DNA of 64,000 nt from Octopus sinensis (Eukaryota), in assembly GCF_006345805.1 (NCBI RefSeq), contig NC_043002.1, forward strand, positions 83,700,001 to 83,764,000, written 5' to 3'. This document shows, in pieces, positions 10,006 through 60,924 of the stretch. The notes under the pieces are model-generated. The model ran no database searches. It worked only from the letters and a program-made list of their open reading frames with translations, and was not told the origin of the DNA. A program made the position numbers and the translations under genes. Numbering within the stretch: position 1 is the stretch's first letter; every line of letters begins with the position of its first letter.

Positions 10006-10719
10006 TACCAAAAGTAAATAATATGCCATGCACGGAACCTCAGACAAGAGTTTCCCTGGCGTCATCTTCACAAACAATACTGGGATGATCTTTCTGCGTA
10101 AAGAGGACTGTAGTTTATCGTGTACGAGTTCGACAGTTGTTTTGCTTTCACTTTGTTGCCCGCCATTTTTAATACGTAAAGCAACTCACATAAAAAAATA
10201 TATCGTCAAGATTTCTGAGCAGCTATTTTAAGATAGATTAACATTAATGTCCCAGCCAAGAAGAGCGGAATTTAAGCATCTACCTAATGTCGAAGACAAC
10301 AGCGTCAGATGTTTGGTGGCACAATGCTTGAGTCGCAGGTTATTCAGGACATCACTTTCTATCTGAATTACCTAAATTTATGCCCTTAGTCAATTTTTAT
10401 AATTCCTTTTAATTATTTTAACCATTCCTTTTAATTATTGCAATCCTTTGCTTTCCGCAATGGTTATACATAAAACTCCTATGAATATTCAAACTCTAAA
10501 ATTCATATGCTAGGGAAGTAATTCCAATAAAACATCTTCATTGAATTTTTGCAACAACTAAAATCGCTGTAAAAGGAGGGGTTTTCTTTTTAAGCCAACT
10601 CTTGATAGCAACGTACATGTTTCGATTATAATAGACCTCCTCAGCGAACATCTGCAGGGAGTTTTTGTCTACTAATTGCATGGATAATTTGCGATGTTTC
10701 AATTTGTCCAAACATTTCA

Positions 10720-38228: not shown

Positions 38229-38415
38229 TCCAACATGAAAACACAGAGAGAAACACAACAATGCGAGGACGTGGAACAAGTATGCTGTTAATGGGAAAGG
38301 AAAGAAAGAAGGAGGATTTAACGTTTCGAGCAGAGCTCTTCGTCAGAAACATAGGAAAAAGAAATATCCAAGAAAGGGATGACGGAGGGGAAAAAAATCG
38401 CCAACGATACACACA
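38229..38415 (-). mobile_element. Hammerhead-bearing non-coding element, family of 18481-18680
   Basis: Shared ATCGTTGGCGATTTT and CCACGTCCTCGC blocks; abuts (TA)n. Confidence 0.7.
38316..38350 (-). ncRNA. Minimal type I hammerhead ribozyme, canonical C3-G8 core
   Basis: Minus strand GTTT-CTGACGA-A-GAGC(TCT)GCTC-GAAAC-GTT-AAAT; palindromic helix III AACGTT. Confidence 0.7.
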
Positions 38416-41666: not shown

Positions 41667-41758
41667 ACATATATGTATGGCCATTTCGGGAGCTCCACAC
41701 TGCAGATCATTTACACTAAAGTGCATCATGGCGATAACCCCCTCATCAGGATAAACAT
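41667..41758 (-). ncRNA. Type I hammerhead ribozyme with extended stem II
   Basis: Minus strand ATGTTTATC-CTGATGA-GGGGG(about 45 nt)CTCCC-GAA-ATGGCCAT-A-CATATATG; palindromic helix III, AUA cleavage triplet, imperfect stem I. Confidence 0.6.
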
Positions 41759-53025: not shown

Positions 53026-53114
53026 CCACCAAAAAGTAAAACTATAATTGTCATCAAGTATGACTAAGGGTGTCAGAACACCTACACTGCAAGAAATAAG
53101 AAATAAACTGCTCT

Positions 53115-54600
53115 AACCCGAGCTGCTCCAGTGATTGCGAACCTTGTAATGGGTTACCTAGAACTTAAAATAAACCAATCATCACTACAAAAATATGGCA
53201 CCTCATTTCATTGCTATGTAAAGGAGAACTGGAAGAGGTATTTGGACGATTGTTTTATACTTTGGAAAGATAGCATGGGCAAACTCCTCGATTTCAAAAT
53301 AATGCTCAGCAATATTAATAGCAACATACAATTCACCATGGAGTACAGCAATAAACAACTCCCTTTTCTTGACATCCTAATTAAAATAGTCAATAACCAC
53401 ATCGAAACAGACATCTTCTATAAACCAACAGATTCTAAACAATACCTATTATTCAACTCATGCCACCCCAAACACATAAAAATTAATATACCTTATAATC
53501 TAGCGAAAAGAATCTGTACTATAGTTTCGGACACCTATACTCGTGAACGAAGACACCTTGAACTCAGATCAATATTAATAAAAAAAACATTACCCAATAT
53601 CATTAATAAATGATGGCATTAAACAAGCAAAGGAAATAGACATACGAACATTAAGGGAAGTCAACCGAAATACTACACCAGACTTTAAAATACTCCCATA
53701 TATCTCCGCACATAACCCTAGAAACAATGCAGCCTTCAACATTATCATCCAAAATCTATCCATCCTCACAGGAGATAAAACAATGAACAAAATTTTAGGC
53801 TCATACAAAATTATCAAAAGCAAAATGCAACCGAAATCATTGAAAAAAATATTAACCAGCGCAAGACTATATGCATTAACAACGGAACCTAAAATGAAAA
53901 AATGTGGTCGACCTAACTGTGGCACATGCCCCCACCTTTTGGAGGGTTCAGAGTTCCACTTTAATCAAGGTGAAATATCTAAGATTAAATCAAATTTCAC
54001 CTGTGCCTCGGAAAACCTAATCTATAACATTACATGCTTTGGGCGCGATAATCAGTATATTGGCCAAACAGGAATATCACTCGTCGAAGAACCACTCTCC
54101 ACAAAGAACAAATCCGCCATCTATAATACAGACAGGTACAAGTTAGTGAACACATAGAAAGGTGTGCTAAGAACCTTAATCCTAATTTCCTAATTTTCTC
54201 CTATCAATGTTCACAGAACACCTCAGTACAGCAAAGAATGGATAAAGAGGCAACTTTCATCAATAAATATCTTCCACAACTCAATATGAACACATAACAT
54301 AATACAGAACACTACAAACCTTTCAGTTAATACCACTAACCCCTATATATCCCATACACCATTCACATTACAGTATTATATCTACCCTAATTGCATCAAA
54401 TCCAGAACTACTTACCTCCCTTACACATAAACTTTTTACTCAGAGACTAGTAGACCCGACACCGTTCGGTAATCGGTGCGCATTCAAAGCCAGTGAACAG
54501 TAATTTACGAAACCGGTATACCTTCGAATCTCTTTAATAATTCCCAATAATGACTTTTATTACTTTTATTCCTACCTCAGTTCATCTAATTGTATATATC
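53115..54600 (+). mobile_element. 5'-truncated Penelope-like element (RT C-terminal half plus GIY-YIG), frameshifted
   Basis: ANLVMGYLE..WKRYLDDCF..LPFLD..YKPTDSKQYL..SCHP; KKCGRPNCGTC..FTCASENLIY..YIGQT; clearly homologous to 58058-59821. Confidence 0.93.
54487..54524 (+). ncRNA. Minimal hammerhead with G3-C8 core variant in PLE 3' region
   Basis: AAGCCA-GTGAACA-GTA(ATT)TAC-GAAAC-CG-GTA-TACCTT; helix III palindrome ACCGGT; stem I partly mismatched. Confidence 0.5.
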
Positions 54601-54899
54601 TATTGTTAATTTTCATAACAAGCCTTTACTTTTTCTGATTTCCAATGTGCATTTTCGCTTTTTTTTCTTCTTACTTTCCCCTTACATTTCCACGTGTAGC
54701 TTCTATTTTCTTTTTGTAACATTTTCTATTATGTGTGTGTGTGTGTGTGTGTGGTGTGTGTAATGTATATTTATACATACATACATACATACATACATAC
54801 ATACATACATACATACATACATACATACATACATACATACATACATACAAATTAGCTGCCCGGTAGATGTTAACATAAAGCTGAGGATCATTGAAAAAG

Positions 54900-55150
54900 A
54901 AAATAAGTTGAGGCGATGAGGAGACATACCAGATGGAGTGAGTGGGTTTATGAATTCAAATGGATAGTTCTGAATCTCCTCTTCGTTATTGCAGGACACT
55001 GAATCTGTGCTTAAGTACGTTTTAAGTGCCTCATGTATAATATAAAGAACTTTTTCATTTATTGCAAGACAGTCAGAATTTTTAGGAGATAAAATTACTC
55101 GTTTTTCCATTTCGTCTGGTGTTTAGTTATTGAAAATTTCTGGGTACAAA
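54900..55150 (-). mobile_element. Helitron PIF1-like helicase fragment
   Basis: RVILSPKNSDCLAINEKVL..YLSTD..YPFEFINPLTPSGMSPHRLNL. Confidence 0.85.
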
Positions 55151-55842
55151 TTAAAATGCAAAAGAACGAAATAATAAATGGTTTGGTAATTGCGTCTATT
55201 CCCAGCACGCGACACTTATTATCACAAACATGTTTTAACTAACCTTAGCTATACACACACACACAAATACATTCATATATATATATATATGTCTCGGGTT
55301 GTAGCTGTAATTCAAAGGGGGCCAGCCTTGTCATATTCTATGTGAGGCTGAATCTCACTGAGAACTACGTTAATATTATGCATGTATGTGGAGTACTCAG
55401 CCATTTGTGAGTTAATTTTATCCTCGTGTGGTAATGAAAAGTGAAATGACAGCCAATATTTGCTGTGTCTATGTATCTATATATGAACTTTTCTTTGGAT
55501 TTATGTATCTACTGTCTCTCTCTCTCTCTCCCTTTCTCTTTCACTTCCTTTGTGTCCTTCTCTCCCACTTTTGATTTAACAATGTGTATATGTATCTTTG
55601 TATCTACTCTTGCGATGTGATAAACATTTAAAAACACAAAACGAACGCCGTCACCTCTCACTGTCTCTTTCACTCTCTCTCTCTCCCTCTTTCTTTTTCA
55701 CTTTTTCTCTCTCTCTCTTTCTCTCTCTCACTCTCTCTCTCTCTCTCACTCTCTCTCTCTCACTCTCTCTCTCTCACTCATTCCATCCTTATCACTTACT
55801 TCCTCTCTGTCCTTCTCTCTCTCGCTTGCCACTTCTTCAGCG

Positions 55843-56053
55843 TCCTGCACTAATGAAGAAGTTCAGAACTGTCCATTTGAATTCATAAACTCACTCACTC
55901 CATCTGGTATGCCTCCTCATCGCCTCAACTTAAAAGTAGGAGCTATTGTAATGATGCTAAGAAATCTTTCGATAAGTCAAGGATTATGTAATGGAACTCG
56001 CATGAAAGTGCAAAGACTTCATGGACATTGTGTAGAGGTATCATTGGTAACAG
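55843..56053 (+). mobile_element. Second Helitron PIF1-like helicase fragment, absent from the ORF track
   Basis: Open frame SCTNEEVQNCPFEFINSLTPSGMPPHRLNLKVGAIVMMLRNLSISQGLCNGTRMKV. Confidence 0.9.
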
Positions 56054-57078
56054 TATTTCTATCACTGCTGTAGTTGATGGCTTTTGCTGCTTTTGTCGAC
56101 GTTGTCGTCGTTGCCGTAAAATCAAAATATCGAAGCTTGAAAAACCGAAAACTCAGAATCCCGAATACAGTAATAACAAGTTTGAACTATTTTAGAGAAA
56201 ATAATGATAAAACGGCTTTAAAAGACATTTATTTGCAGTTTTAAAAGAGAGTTTGAGAAACTTATTGTAACACATTTACTTAAAGAAAAAAATTAAAATA
56301 TTATAGCATGAAAATGATATCGAAAATATCAGTGAAAACGTAAATAATATATTTATCAAATATTTTTGTTCTTTAAGATCTCATATTATTGGGTATTTTC
56401 CTTCTTTTAATATAAGCAAAAGCATACGATAAAAAAAAAATCCGAATTTCGATAGACCGCAACGCAAGGGAGGTAAGTAAGTGCATGAAATTAATTCCTA
56501 TCCACACCTGTCTCGGAAGCCACGAAAAAAGGTCACGATCGCTGCTTTTCCTCTTGTGACTAAGTCGTTAAAAAAATACTGTTCCCCCGCCTCTGCAACT
56601 TGTTTATATGATAATCAAAACATTTGTTGTTTACAACTTCCTCTGTAATAACCTGCGGTTACAATGCCGGTATTAAGATTATAAAGCAATACAAGTCTAA
56701 AATTAAAAAAACCATCAGCTTTAAGAAACTAACTCCCACTAACATCCTACGCAACGCGTTTCTATGAGAACCAAGTTATTTCCTTGTGTTTCCTGTGAAT
56801 GCCATTCTAAGACTTGCTATACTTTTATAATATACCCCCAAAAAATTAAAATAAAGAAAATTTTTTGAACTTCTTTAAGATTAATGCCTTTTCATTTCCT
56901 CTTTTTCTCATATCAATGTCCGTTCGATGACTTGTAGTTATTCATCATGCATAAATTGTATACTTGGGCCTTATGAATAACGTATTTCACAGGCAATTCG
57001 TGTGTCGTGATTTAGTATCAGCTATTGATGATTCACTCTAGATGTCTCATATATATATATATATTATAATATATATAT

Positions 57079-57127
<49 letters not shown>

Positions 57128-57217
57128 ATATGTATAAGGGTGAAAAGGGACACACGAGTTGATATATATGAAAAAACAAGTCAAAAATAGAAAATGCTAA
57201 AATAATTTTATAGTGAA

Positions 57218-57265
57218 CATTTCAGTACCGGTTTCGGTCATTTTGAGACCTTTTCAACTGTAACG
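57218..57265 (-). ncRNA. Minimal type I hammerhead ribozyme, U3-A8 core variant
   Basis: Minus strand CGTTACAG-TTGAAAA-GGTC(TCAAAAT)GACC-GAAAC-CG-GTA-CTGAAATG; stem I 7 of 8 paired, stem II 4 bp, palindromic helix III, GUA triplet. Confidence 0.75.
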
Positions 57266-57616
57266 ATTAAATAATTAAATTTAGAAAAATTAGAAGAAAA
57301 GTTTTTTTAAAAGAATATTTCTATAGTAGTGTTCAGATTTAAGTGGCATTCTGCCTTTCTCTGACCCTTGTTTGCACTTGTGTGTTCGAGGTAGTTGTGA
57401 GTTCTTGGTAGGGTAGTAGAGGAAGAAGGCTGGTGAGGAAAGGGTGGTGGGAGAATCTGGGAGTGCCCTGATGGTCGTATTTTGAATGGTCAGTGGCGGC
57501 TGGCAGTCTCAGTTCAATTCAGGAGAATATTTATATTGACAGGCTTGTTTATAGAATTAGCGTAGGTGTTATACTAAAAAACATTAGTGACAAAGTTAAG
57601 GGGTAGGGGTGGAGAA

Positions 57617-57930
57617 GTAGAAGAAGAAGAAGAAGAAGAAGAAGAAGAAGAAGAAGAAGAAGAGAAGAAGAAGAAGAAGAAGGAGAAGGAGAAGATGACG
57701 ATGATGGTGATGGTGGTGATGATTATGACGACGATGATGATGATAATGATGATGATGAAGAAGAAGAAGAAGAAGAAGAAGAAGAAGAAGAAGAAGAAGA
57801 AGAAGAAGAAGAAGAAGAAGGAGGAGGAGAAGGAGAAGATGGTGGTGATGATGGTGGTGATGATGATGACGACGATGATGATGATAATGATGATGATGAA
57901 GAAGAAGAGGAAGAAGAAGAAGAAGAAAAA
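57617..57930. repeat. (GAA)n/(GAT)n compound repeat with a duplicated block, inside the PLE 3' UTR
   Basis: Direct triplet repeats. Confidence 0.9.
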
Positions 57931-58057
57931 AACAGAGAAGGGAGAATATGAATGGGTGTAAGTATAGCTTTGAAGGGGCTGATTAGTAATGGATTCTATG
58001 GAGTGTAGTATTTGTGTGTGTATATATATTTTTCTTTTATTCTAAAGTTGAGGTATA

Positions 58058-59821
58058 TTAATTGTTTGTCGTAGACCCGTTAAGAAGTGGCTGGTATTTT
58101 GTAATAAAGAGATTTTCTTTACTTATTCGTTGTCTCGAGGTTGTATCGTCCCTAAATTGGTAGAGGGGGAAAATTCTGAAGTTTGGTGTTTTTTTGTTGG
58201 CGCAAGTATCTATGTGTTGGCTAAAAGCTATTTTTCTGTTTTGGGGAATTTTTATCTGGGATCTGTGCAGGGCCATTCGTTTACGCAAACCATTTTTTGT
58301 TTGGCCTATGTACTGCTCTTGACACCCGGAGCAGGTTAGTGAGTATATTAGGTTCTCCGAAGCACATGTGAAGTTGCTTTTCACTGTAAACCGTTGTCCC
58401 TGTTTGAAGGAGAACTCAGAACCCTCGATTAGATAGTCGCATATCCCGCAATTGGGTCTTCCACATTTTTTTACTGTCGGCTTCTGTGTTGAAGAGTGAA
58501 TTCGGGCTTGTGTAAGGAGACTTTTCATGGATCTAGGCTGTCTTTTGCTTTTTATGATCGTGTGTGTTTGGAGGATTGTGTTCATTCTGTGGTCTTTTTT
58601 TAGGAGGGGTATGTTGTGGAGGATGGTGTCGAAGGCTTCGTTATTGAGAGGGTTGTGTGTGGAGATGTATGGTAAGGCTTTTGGTTGTAAGTTTTTCTTT
58701 GATTTGGGATGTCTCAGTTCCTTGATGTTAAGTTGAAGGGCACGTTGAATGCACTTGTCAATAAGTGAAGGTGGATAGTTCCTGGTGATTAGGGTATCTT
58801 TTAGTTCTTGTAGTCGTGTGTCTCTGGTGTTTGCGTTAGAGACTATAGTGCATATCCTTTTTGCTAGATTGAAGGGGATATTCATCCTGGTGTGTCTGGG
58901 GTGGCATGAATTGAATGGAAGATATTGCTTAGAGTCTGTAGGCTTATAGTATATGTCTGTTTCTGTTATATTATTAGCTTTCTTAATGAGGATATCGAGG
59001 AAGGAGAGTTGTTGTTGGCTATATTCCATCGTGAATTGGATGTTTACGTCCAGTCCGTTTAAAATTTTCTGGAATTCTATGAGTTTTTCTATATTTTTAT
59101 GCCAAAGGATGAAACAGTCATCTAGATATCTCTTCCAGTTGTTTTCTATGTAGATGGAGAAAGGGCTGCCATATCTTTCTAGAACCTTACGATACAGACT
59201 GATCTCTAGGTATCCTATGACTAGGTTGGCAAAGGAGGGGGCCATTCGTGTACCCATCGCAGTCCCCGATTTTTGTCGGTAGAAGTTGTCATTGAAGGCG
59301 AAGAAGTTATTTTCCAGGATGAATTTAACCCCTTCTATCACAAATTCTTTTTTGATGCGGTGTGGTAGTTCGTTGGCGTGATTCTCTAGCCAGAATTGGA
59401 TTGCCTCTAGTCCTAGGTTGTGGGGGATATTGGAGTAGAGGTTGACTACATCGAAGGATACCAGTATGGTGTTTTTGTTTATAGTATTCGGTAGGTGATT
59501 GAGCATATCTAAGTCGTCCCTTATATAGCTTTTGACATGTTTGAGGAGTGGTTTTAACAGGGTGTCTAAAAAGTTACTGAGGCGGTGGGTTTCGCATGCG
59601 GGACTTGCTATTATGGGTCTCAATTTGAGGTCATTAGGATTAGGGACTTTAATTATTTTGTCTGTAGCTATCTTGCATGCGTTGCTTATTTTTTCACTTT
59701 TGTGGATCTTAGGTATACCGTAGAATTGGCTAGTTTTACTTGTGAAATTGGTCATATAATCATATTCTTTGTCGGTGAGCCCTGCTTTGTATGGGTTTAA
59801 TATGGATTTTAGTTCCCTCAT
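58058..59821 (-). CDS. PLE reverse transcriptase plus GIY-YIG endonuclease, C-terminal 587 aa
   Basis: FYGIPKIHK, LRPII, SFDVVNLY, GTAMGTRMAPSFANL, WKRYLDD, FLD, CGRPNCGIC linker, LIY..C..C..YIGQT. Confidence 0.95.
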   Translation of the reverse strand: MRELKSILNPYKAGLTDKEYDYMTNFTSKTSQFYGIPKIHKSEKISNACKIATDKIIKVPNPNDLKLRPIIASPACETHRLSNFLDTLLKPLLKHVKSYIRDDLDMLNHLPNTINKNTILVSFDVVNLYSNIPHNLGLEAIQFWLENHANELPHRIKKEFVIEGVKFILENNFFAFNDNFYRQKSGTAMGTRMAPSFANLVIGYLEISLYRKVLERYGSPFSIYIENNWKRYLDDCFILWHKNIEKLIEFQKILNGLDVNIQFTMEYSQQQLSFLDILIKKANNITETDIYYKPTDSKQYLPFNSCHPRHTRMNIPFNLAKRICTIVSNANTRDTRLQELKDTLITRNYPPSLIDKCIQRALQLNIKELRHPKSKKNLQPKALPYISTHNPLNNEAFDTILHNIPLLKKDHRMNTILQTHTIIKSKRQPRSMKSLLTQARIHSSTQKPTVKKCGRPNCGICDYLIEGSEFSFKQGQRFTVKSNFTCASENLIYSLTCSGCQEQYIGQTKNGLRKRMALHRSQIKIPQNRKIAFSQHIDTCANKKTPNFRIFPLYQFRDDTTSRQRISKENLFITKYQPLLNGSTTNN

Positions 59822-60330
59822 TATTTTTGTTGACTGTAGTTTTGTGCCTTTTCATAGTATGTTGTGTCTTCCAGCATAGAAAGTACCAAAGTTATGTAAA
59901 ATGTCGTATCCATTAAGACAACAGCACTCCCTTTATCGGCCTCTTTGATTGTTATTGTTTTATCTAGTTTTAATTTGTTCAACTCAGCCCATTCTTTTTT
60001 GCTGAAGTTTGGTTTGTGTTTTTGTTTGTGCATATGTTGATATGGGTAATTTGATATGTGGTCACAGAAATCATCAAGTGTTTTATTCTTACCTTTCGAG
60101 GGGGTGTAGTTACTCCTATTTCTGGCTAACGATTCGTCCTCGTTGTATTTATCGTATAGCTCCTCAGTAAGTCTTAATTTTCTGCAGAATTCTGCGATGT
60201 CTTCTTTCATTTCATTGTAGTTGGGGTGTTGTGGGGTGGGTGTAAACTTGAGTCCTTTGGAAAGTATGTTTATTTGGTTTGCTGTTAGTTCCTTGTGAGT
60301 TAGATTAATAATTTTTATTACTTTTGGTTC
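59821..60330 (-). CDS. N-terminal part of the same PLE ORF, separated by a single-base frameshift
   Basis: IINLTHKELTANQINILSKGLKFTPTP...ITIKEADKGSAVVLMD. Confidence 0.85.
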   Translation of the reverse strand, partial: EPKVIKIINLTHKELTANQINILSKGLKFTPTPQHPNYNEMKEDIAEFCRKLRLTEELYDKYNEDESLARNRSNYTPSKGKNKTLDDFCDHISNYPYQHMHKQKHKPNFSKKEWAELNKLKLDKTITIKEADKGSAVVLMDTTFYITLVLSMLEDTTYYEKAQNYSQQK

Positions 60331-60924
60331 CTCCTGCTTGTTTGGTGCTATCTTGAGTCTCTGTGTTTGCGTATTGGGTCTAAAAGATGAATGCGGTTGT
60401 TGGGACAGTAGCTAGTATATAGTTGTTCTTTGTTGATTAGGGGTCTCCTGTTGTGATTTATGGTGTGTGTTCTTGGAGCAGTATTGAGGAGAGCATCCCG
60501 ATATCCCATATTCGGGTGTGGTGTTCTAGGAGGCCTTCGTTGGTAATCATTGCAAGTGGTGTGGGTTTGTTGTGCATGGTTGTTTAACCGGTTAATGGGA
60601 CGAAGATTTCGTTGGTAACTCCTTTGGGTGGGGATGAGGTTGCAGTGTCTATGCTGTGGGTGTTGATTTATCCTTTCTCTGCTTGAAGTGGGGGTATACC
60701 TGATATTGTATCGCTGGCTGCTTACAGAGTTAGGGTTAGGTCCTGTATTCTTTTTTTGATAGTAGTGAAGGTTCCGATTTTTAGACAGGTGTGTATCGGT
60801 GTTTGGGTGTTGTTTTGGTTTTCTTATTTTCTGGAAAGGGTTGTTGGAGGCGTGCTCTGTTTGAAAGACGGCTTCATAGTCTGAGAACCAAGTGGCGCTT
60901 TTCTCCCAGCGTTGGAGGACCCAA

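Follow-up and report, generated by a model that had tools for sequence, protein, structure and literature searches.

Minimal hammerhead motifs with U3-A8 and G3-C8 cores in Penelope-like elements of Octopus sinensis, and the exchange of the 3-8 pair among related families

Introduction

Hammerhead ribozymes of a minimal kind are known from metazoan Penelope-like elements (PLEs), including Cercyon of Schistosoma, and these are the closest described relatives of two motifs in a stretch of 64,000 nt from Octopus sinensis (assembly GCF_006345805.1, contig NC_043002.1, positions 83,700,001 to 83,764,000), which we call the window and within which all coordinates below are counted. The minimal PLE hammerheads in PMC4209133, some with a U3-A8 core in Schistosoma, had low activity and cleaved only as dimers. 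By our count, the alignment in that paper contains 53 C3-G8, two U3-A8 and one U3·G8 among its 56 rows and no G3-C8 or A3-U8, and its search descriptors admitted only C-G or U-A. The first natural covariation of positions 3 and 8, to U3-A8, was described in PMC3088659, together with weak stems II of two pairs. In a review, small PLE variants with a short palindromic stem III are said to cleave as dimers (PMC6765202). In PMC11167929, cleavage by the PLE hammerhead was assisted by protein; single changes at position 3 or 8 abolished it and the double change C3G/G8C partly restored it.

The two window motifs, carried by elements that we call families A and B, share with those in PMC4209133 the type I layout, the place in a terminal repeat behind the GIY-YIG domain, a palindromic rudimentary helix III, the G10.1-C11.1 pair and the predicted cleavage as dimers, and family A also shares U3-A8. 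Unlike them, the motifs described here have a stem II of 2-4 bp, no extra base after A9 and a helix III that reads A-CCGG-U, and among motifs with this helix III only a small fraction have C3-G8. Natural 3-8 covariation and weak two-pair stems II are in common with the variants in PMC3088659, but the latter have U3-A8 alone, without a purine at position 3. In PAc, the hammerhead of the Anolis element Poseidon whose 3-8 pair has been put to the test, G3-C8 is a laboratory mutant with partial activity (PMC11167929), whereas in the present genome several subfamilies have it naturally, each of them with A17. The small PLE variants of Lünse, Weinberg and Breaker (RNA Biol 14:1499) likewise have a short palindromic stem III and dimer cleavage, as judged from their title and from PMC6765202. 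U3-A8 in PLEs is already published and is ordinary (PMC3088659, PMC4209133). Neither G3-C8 nor A3-U8 was found described as a natural family state in the literature searched, which excluded Lünse et al. 2017, the likeliest source. What is worth following is that such families exist and that a single genome has all four pairs together with intermediate states.

Results

The two motifs in the window

Both window motifs are confirmed as minimal type I hammerheads of PLEs. Their parts are as follows.

54482-54529, plus strand: family B minimal hammerhead with a G3-C8 core; stem I is decayed in this copy
54493-54499, plus strand: core of the family B motif, G3 U4 G5 A6 A7 C8 A9 (GUGAACA)
54509-54518, plus strand: G12-A13-A14 and the palindromic helix III ACCGGU (54512-54517) of family B, reading GAAA-CCGG-UA
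57218-57265, minus strand: family A minimal hammerhead with a U3-A8 core; stems I and II are intact
57251-57257, minus strand: core of the family A motif, U3 U4 G5 A6 A7 A8 A9 (UUGAAAA)
57226-57235, minus strand: G12-A13-A14 and the palindromic helix III ACCGGU (57232-57227) of family A, reading GAAA-CCGG-UA

The core letters of type I hammerheads (U4, G5, A6, A9, G12, A13, A14, the pair A15.1-U16.1 and H17) are all in place in both motifs, the 3-8 pair is Watson-Crick in each (U-A and G-C), stem II contains G10.1-C11.1, and the helix III ACCGGU is the palindromic, rudimentary one of minimal dimer-type PLE hammerheads. Stem II is GGUC/GACC (4 bp) in family A and GUA/UAC (3 bp, with a 3-nt loop, 54500-54508) in family B. 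From the hammerhead numbering, cleavage would be expected after A17, at 54518 in family B and 57226 in family A. Both motifs lie on the sense strand of frames for reverse transcriptase (RT) and GIY-YIG, 196 nt 3' of the stop at 54295-54297 in family B and about 800 nt 3' of the stop at 58058-58060 in family A. A sequence-only reading of the window had placed them in this way behind the GIY-YIG stops of two related PLEs; the coordinates were confirmed, and the proteins encoded by the two frames share 43-60% identity. That reading had also given each motif a stem I, which is true of family A, where CAG/CUG (3 bp) is followed by four more pairs past an A·A mismatch. In the family B copy, stem I has only 1 bp beside the core; it is broken because A at 54520 replaces the G found in 27 of 30 relatives. 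In family A and in most family B copies stem I closes on the core. A dimer between the two window motifs was ruled out by their opposite strands and different stems I.

One might suppose that such motifs are chance look-alikes or decayed copies of the usual CUGANGA core, and the lack of an Rfam match above threshold speaks for this. The family B motif was not matched by the Rfam models at their gathering score, and the family A motif reached 19.7 bits with HH9 against a gathering threshold of 52 bits; these models derive from C3-G8 motifs that have a full helix III. The variants are missed here, as the sequence-only reading had expected of standard searches. A scan of the whole window with Rfam gave microsatellite matches to microRNA and small nucleolar RNA models and no hammerhead among the 150 of 296 matches listed. 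However, a relaxed hammerhead descriptor found five motifs in the window. Four of these combine a Watson-Crick 3-8 pair with a stem I of 1 bp or more, compared to a mean of 0.12 such motifs in 100 dinucleotide shuffles, or 0.02 when the palindromic insert had at least 4 nt. Identical copies of the motifs number in the thousands, against 35 in the reversed-pattern control, and the CUGANGA core was absent from all 66 copies of families A and B picked by homology. Chance and decay are thus refuted by the shuffles and by the family copies, and we leave them next to no probability.

Core states in families A and B

Family copies were collected by DNA homology, from the best 40 of 1626 candidates for family A and the best 40 of 1551 for family B, giving 30 loci each; copies picked in this way are those closest to the window's own. 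U3-A8 was present in all 36 family A copies that cover the core (two more alignments fell short of it), and the 30 family B copies comprised 17 G3-C8, 12 A3-U8 and one A3·C8, so that the 3-8 pair was Watson-Crick in 29 of 30. The cores UUGAAAA and GUGAACA are therefore family states, not decay, and hold as the compensatory variants they had been taken for; neither family has a CUGANGA consensus. In family B, U4, A9, A13, A14, U16.1 and A17 were invariant (30/30), G5, A6, G12 and A15.1 were kept in 28-29 of 30, and position 7 was free (12 A, 18 U).

With positions 3, 7 and 8 left open, the family B pattern matched 152 places in the genome and its control none. A hand count of the first 100 matches listed gave 75 A-U, 19 G-C, two each of A·C and G·U, and one each of A·G and U·C. 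Among copies with G3, A17 was found in 28 of 29 and C17 never. This fits avoidance of the G3-C17 trap described for hammerheads (PMC3884650), but all these copies belong to one clade and represent one event.

Four pairs across the genome

Genome-wide counts were made with helix III fixed as CGAAACCGGT and a gap of 6-22, with the reversed pattern as control; they cover only motifs with this helix III, and the classes take in wobble or mismatched members and some off-register double counts. With R for purine and Y for pyrimidine, there were 5819 U3-R8 matches (control 35), 1385 R3-Y8 (control 104; G3-Y8 146, control 33, and A3-Y8 about 1240) and 197 C3-R8 (control 19), of about 7400 in the class. 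The remaining combinations, R3-R8 (196, control 63) and Y3-Y8 (101, control 53), made up 297. Among those listed (100 of 196 and 100 of 101), they appeared to be single-letter decay of the families described here or off-register matches, the exception being a handful of family G copies with A·G, and no large purine-purine or pyrimidine-pyrimidine family was found.

The bulk of the R3-Y8 matches came from family C, which has A3-U8 and a stem II of 2 bp. Families D and E have U3-A8, and further G3-C8 subfamilies are also present. Thus, all four Watson-Crick 3-8 pairs (C-G, U-A, G-C and A-U) occur across related families in this genome. The sequence-only reading had seen U-A, G-C and C-G and had missed the fourth, A3-U8. 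Family F is a tandem family without open reading frames, of 355-360 bp, with a type I hammerhead and 344 pattern matches, the first 30 of which were 10 C-G, 19 U-A and one C·A; its loci (L175-L181, L211-L240 and L266-L272) fall into C-G, C·A and U-A subfamilies. Its size and layout fit those of the animal retrozymes without long terminal repeats (PMC7229834; bioRxiv 10.64898/2026.07.22.740005). It switches among C3-G8, C3·A8 and U3-A8, and the window motifs, unlike retrozymes, sit in protein-coding elements. Family G, a small PLE family at loci L241-L264, has U3·G8 in 16 of 24 copies, C-G in 3, U-A in 3 and A·G in 2, with a stem I that lacks its closing pair. It is possibly a lineage that has lost its ribozyme.

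Covariation and shared ancestry

Because subfamily-diagnostic sites always covary, agreement between positions 3 and 8 could come from a few lucky founders under little or no selection. A protein tree was made from 48 genome rows, drawn from 105 linked motifs, and 18 of 120 homologs; rows of less than 95 residues and, by hand, five mis-linked and five duplicate rows were left out, and family A was thinned. It separated four clades with SH-aLRT support of 96-100, namely family A with U-A, family D with U-A together with family G, family C with A-U, and family B with G-C and A-U. Since this tree leaves the inside of family B unresolved, a DNA tree was made of 54 of its 63 copies, with columns 3, 7 and 8 removed and a midpoint root. 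The A-U copies were nested and the G-C subfamilies lay outside, with two changes and an inner support of 80-85.

The G-C (U7) and A-U sister subfamilies of family B (9 and 27 copies) differ strongly at only 5 of 618 columns, and at 10 in all, and positions 3 and 8 are two of the five. As these two positions had served to define the sister groups, we used a conditional probability: once position 3 has changed, position 8 would be one of the other differing columns with a chance of 4/617 to 9/617 (0.6-1.5%). CpG decay was rejected as the cause of the switch, in that neither position lies in a CpG, and a plain local hairpin behind the 3-8 pair was rejected in that the flanking positions 2.1 and 9 are unpaired in families A, B, C and F, as judged by eye.

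In ten lineages, delimited by ourselves, the 3-8 pair was Watson-Crick in eight (shuffle mean 3.4, p 0.005), and after shared states were collapsed in six of eight (p 0.014). Stem I also varies by family and yet pairs (CAG/CUG, GCA/UGC, UCA/UGA, AUC/GAU, AAU/AUU and GCG/CGU), and within family B some subfamilies have a mismatched third pair in stem I that others lack on both strands. Family F shows a second switch, between C-G and U-A, which is weak alone because 16 strong differences occur in its 220 columns.

The founder explanation is favoured by the small number of independent events, by family F, where co-change is not rare, and by the two lineages that are unpaired at 3-8. It does not readily explain why both positions are among the few columns that separate the family B sisters, why four distinct pairs were reached, why the matches listed contain no large family with two purines or two pyrimidines at 3-8, or why stem I covaries as well, and we regard it as improbable. 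The useful evidence for selection is the switch between sister subfamilies.

Other hammerhead candidates in the window

The sequence-only reading had drawn its case for selection from three pairs within one window, with C3-G8 copies near 38316 and 41667. Such motifs exist, both on the minus strand, but their helix III sequences are unlike those of the family A and B motifs, and no Penelope frame was detected upstream of either with the family A protein as query. The argument is weak because these two motifs belong to unrelated elements. The first (38317-38346, core start 38346) is a minimal hammerhead with a loopless helix III and a stem I of 4 bp. The second (41675-41749, core start 41749) is hammerhead-like; its stem II is long (55 nt) and branched, its helix III carries a palindromic insert of 6 nt, and a C·C mismatch takes the place of the closing pair of stem I. 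An extra C3-G8 candidate, absent from the earlier reading, lies on the minus strand at 10610-10644, with a CUGAGGA core, a palindromic helix III and weak stems.

Host elements

The elements that carry the two motifs have the following parts.

53092-54297, plus strand: family B PLE with an RT/GIY-YIG frame, 5'-truncated and frameshifted (tblastn with the family A protein)
57128-60917, minus strand: family A PLE, young, 5'-truncated by about 0.8 kb (blastn against the tandem array L265)
58058-59851, minus strand: open piece of 597 aa with RT, a Cys-rich linker (C-x4-C-x2-C) and a GIY-YIG endonuclease (Pfam)
57129-57158, minus strand: PLE tail of about 30 nt of the family A copy (sequence comparison)

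The features of PLEs are present, with RT followed by a GIY-YIG endonuclease, tandem or inverted repeats and a terminal tail, the last of which is described in PMC8557442. In the window frames, Pfam matched RVT_1 at 7.8e-09 and GIY-YIG at 4.2e-04, the latter under its cut-off. The tail is present in the window copy of family A and missing from inverted partner copies at several loci. The Cys motif C-x4-C-x2-C lies between RT and the endonuclease, where a Zn-finger-like Cys motif is a feature of the Neptune and Nematis clades (PMC8557442); our protein tree contained no named references for PLE clades. The family B frame matched residues 192-597 of the family A protein in three pieces, at the 43-60% identity given above (tblastn). 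Family B is the older family, with copies about 90% alike and 40 scored relatives at 88-93%. The family A protein has 1173 homologs at E<=1e-20, and the named ones come from bivalves or from symbiont bins of metagenome-assembled genomes. Five close homologs (P0030, P0056, P0066, P0106 and P0115) are labelled as proteins of bivalve-symbiont bacteria on contigs of 3-4 kb, and are probably host DNA within metagenome bins.

The window family A element is 97% identical to the 4.43-kb unit of L265, a tandem array elsewhere in the genome, and no upstream repeat was found for it. Both window copies are solitary and 5'-truncated, on opposite strands and each without a partner copy, and they are likely passive, not the working ones. 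L265 has three motifs, spaced 4428 and 4419 nt, and thus one per 4.4-kb unit, in contrast to the single motifs of the window copies; it carries an open frame of 784 codons, and an ATG lies about 120 nt past the predicted cut. An open frame of 335 codons upstream of the RT frame in the unit, overlapping it, is either a second open reading frame or a frameshifted part of one frame. Between the two Penelope elements in the window, two inverted fragments of a Pif1-type helicase (Helitron-like) lie at 54904-55003 and 55836-56073.

Clustered T>C and A>G changes were seen at 57170-57340, over the family A motif, in assembled contigs of X12 and X14, two runs guessed to be RNA from two studies with two organism codes. 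The T>C and A>G changes fell at 22 and 15 places in X12, 16 and 7 in X14, 1 and 4 in the large run X15, and none in X4. Judged by eye, loose ends before 57255 differ from the window by T>C only, at 10 of 10 differences in X12 and 5 of 5 in X14. On the strand of the element, the T>C changes turn A6-A9, A14 and A15.1 into G. The pattern looks like adenosine-to-inosine hyper-editing of double-stranded RNA from inverted repeats, which would disable the core.

Discussion

Our preferred reading, with a probability of about 0.72, is that the U3-A8 and G3-C8 motifs are family-wide hammerheads of PLE terminal repeats, predicted to cut after GUA as dimers paired through ACCGGU, and that selection favours a Watson-Crick 3-8 pair. 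Two copies of the motif would pair through the palindrome, and within the dimer the core and stem II of one copy would act on the GUA of its partner. The cut might trim a long tandem transcript to unit length; it would likely be slow and likely be helped by the protein of the element. In folding predictions, the lowest-energy dimer of the family A motif has the topology of a double hammerhead, in which stem II forms in cis but stems I and III form in trans, and it is more stable than two monomers by 7.5 kcal/mol. Across seven natural motifs of families A-D the predicted dimers lie 7.5-11.3 kcal/mol below two monomers, a gain that arises with any palindrome and shows feasibility only.

The tertiary 3-8 pair forms only in the active fold, and selection on transposing master copies likely favours any Watson-Crick pair there. 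Lineages have moved between C-G, U-A, G-C and A-U, as the family states show, and such selection is probably the cause. Rescue by a partner copy may ease the passage through mismatched states, and the constraint is loose enough for lineages with a single mismatch to spread a little. Covariation of 3 and 8 among copies across the genome is supported by the four pairs and the sister switch, but qualified by the spread of C3·A8 and U3·G8 lineages.

Several points weigh against this reading. The C3·A8 copies of family F, whose loci were fetched on purpose, form a young clade (10 aligned copies, support 92, on contigs C2, C4, C5 and C8), and family G is mostly U3·G8 with the closing pair of stem I missing. 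Because this clade and this family exist, elements can spread without a 3-8 pair, at lower copy number. The independent switches are few, the pattern searches hold the other core letters fixed, and families B and C have a stem II of just 2-3 bp. Folding also gives rival pairs, namely U3-A17 in family A and pairs of the core with the 3' strand of stem II in G3 copies. In PMC11167929, hammerhead cleavage was dispensable for insertion in vitro and RNA-seq showed no ends at the site, and Naiad PLEs have spread without canonical hammerheads (PMC8557442).

Some of these points would suit a hammerhead fold that is retained for some function besides cutting, for instance to bind the element's own protein or to signal dimerisation, with the 3-8 pair kept for its shape. 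The need for protein and the dispensability in PMC11167929, the low activity that minimal hammerheads show in vitro (PMC4209133) and the spread of C·A and U·G lineages agree with such a role. However, family B copies collected free of any pattern retain G5, A6, G12, A13, A14, U16.1 and, at position 17, a residue other than G, and the 3-8 pair is a mark of the catalytic conformation (PMC3884650), so that a role without cutting seems fairly unlikely to us. The occurrence of all four pairs among related families suggests that selection has preserved the predicted self-cutting shape.

A wider proposal is that this genome holds a complete natural 3-8 series, with C·A and U·G as one-step intermediates that spread, that its G3-C8 and A3-U8 families would be the first natural hammerhead families with a purine at position 3, and that dimer rescue of copies with a broken core explains the free swapping of pairs. 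We put this forward tentatively, and consider it rather doubtful as a whole.

The in vitro activity of PLE hammerheads is low, and in one study insertion did not depend on their cleavage. Compensated change that recurs at a pair confined to the active fold is evolutionary evidence for selection on that fold, and the sister subfamilies are natural test pairs. Such motifs are undercounted in surveys restricted to a CUGANGA or UUGANAA core, as the C3-R8 share of the helix III class above indicates. If the four-pair series is true, cutting would matter to Penelope elements in vivo, and searches for CUGANGA would miss more than 95% of the class in such genomes.

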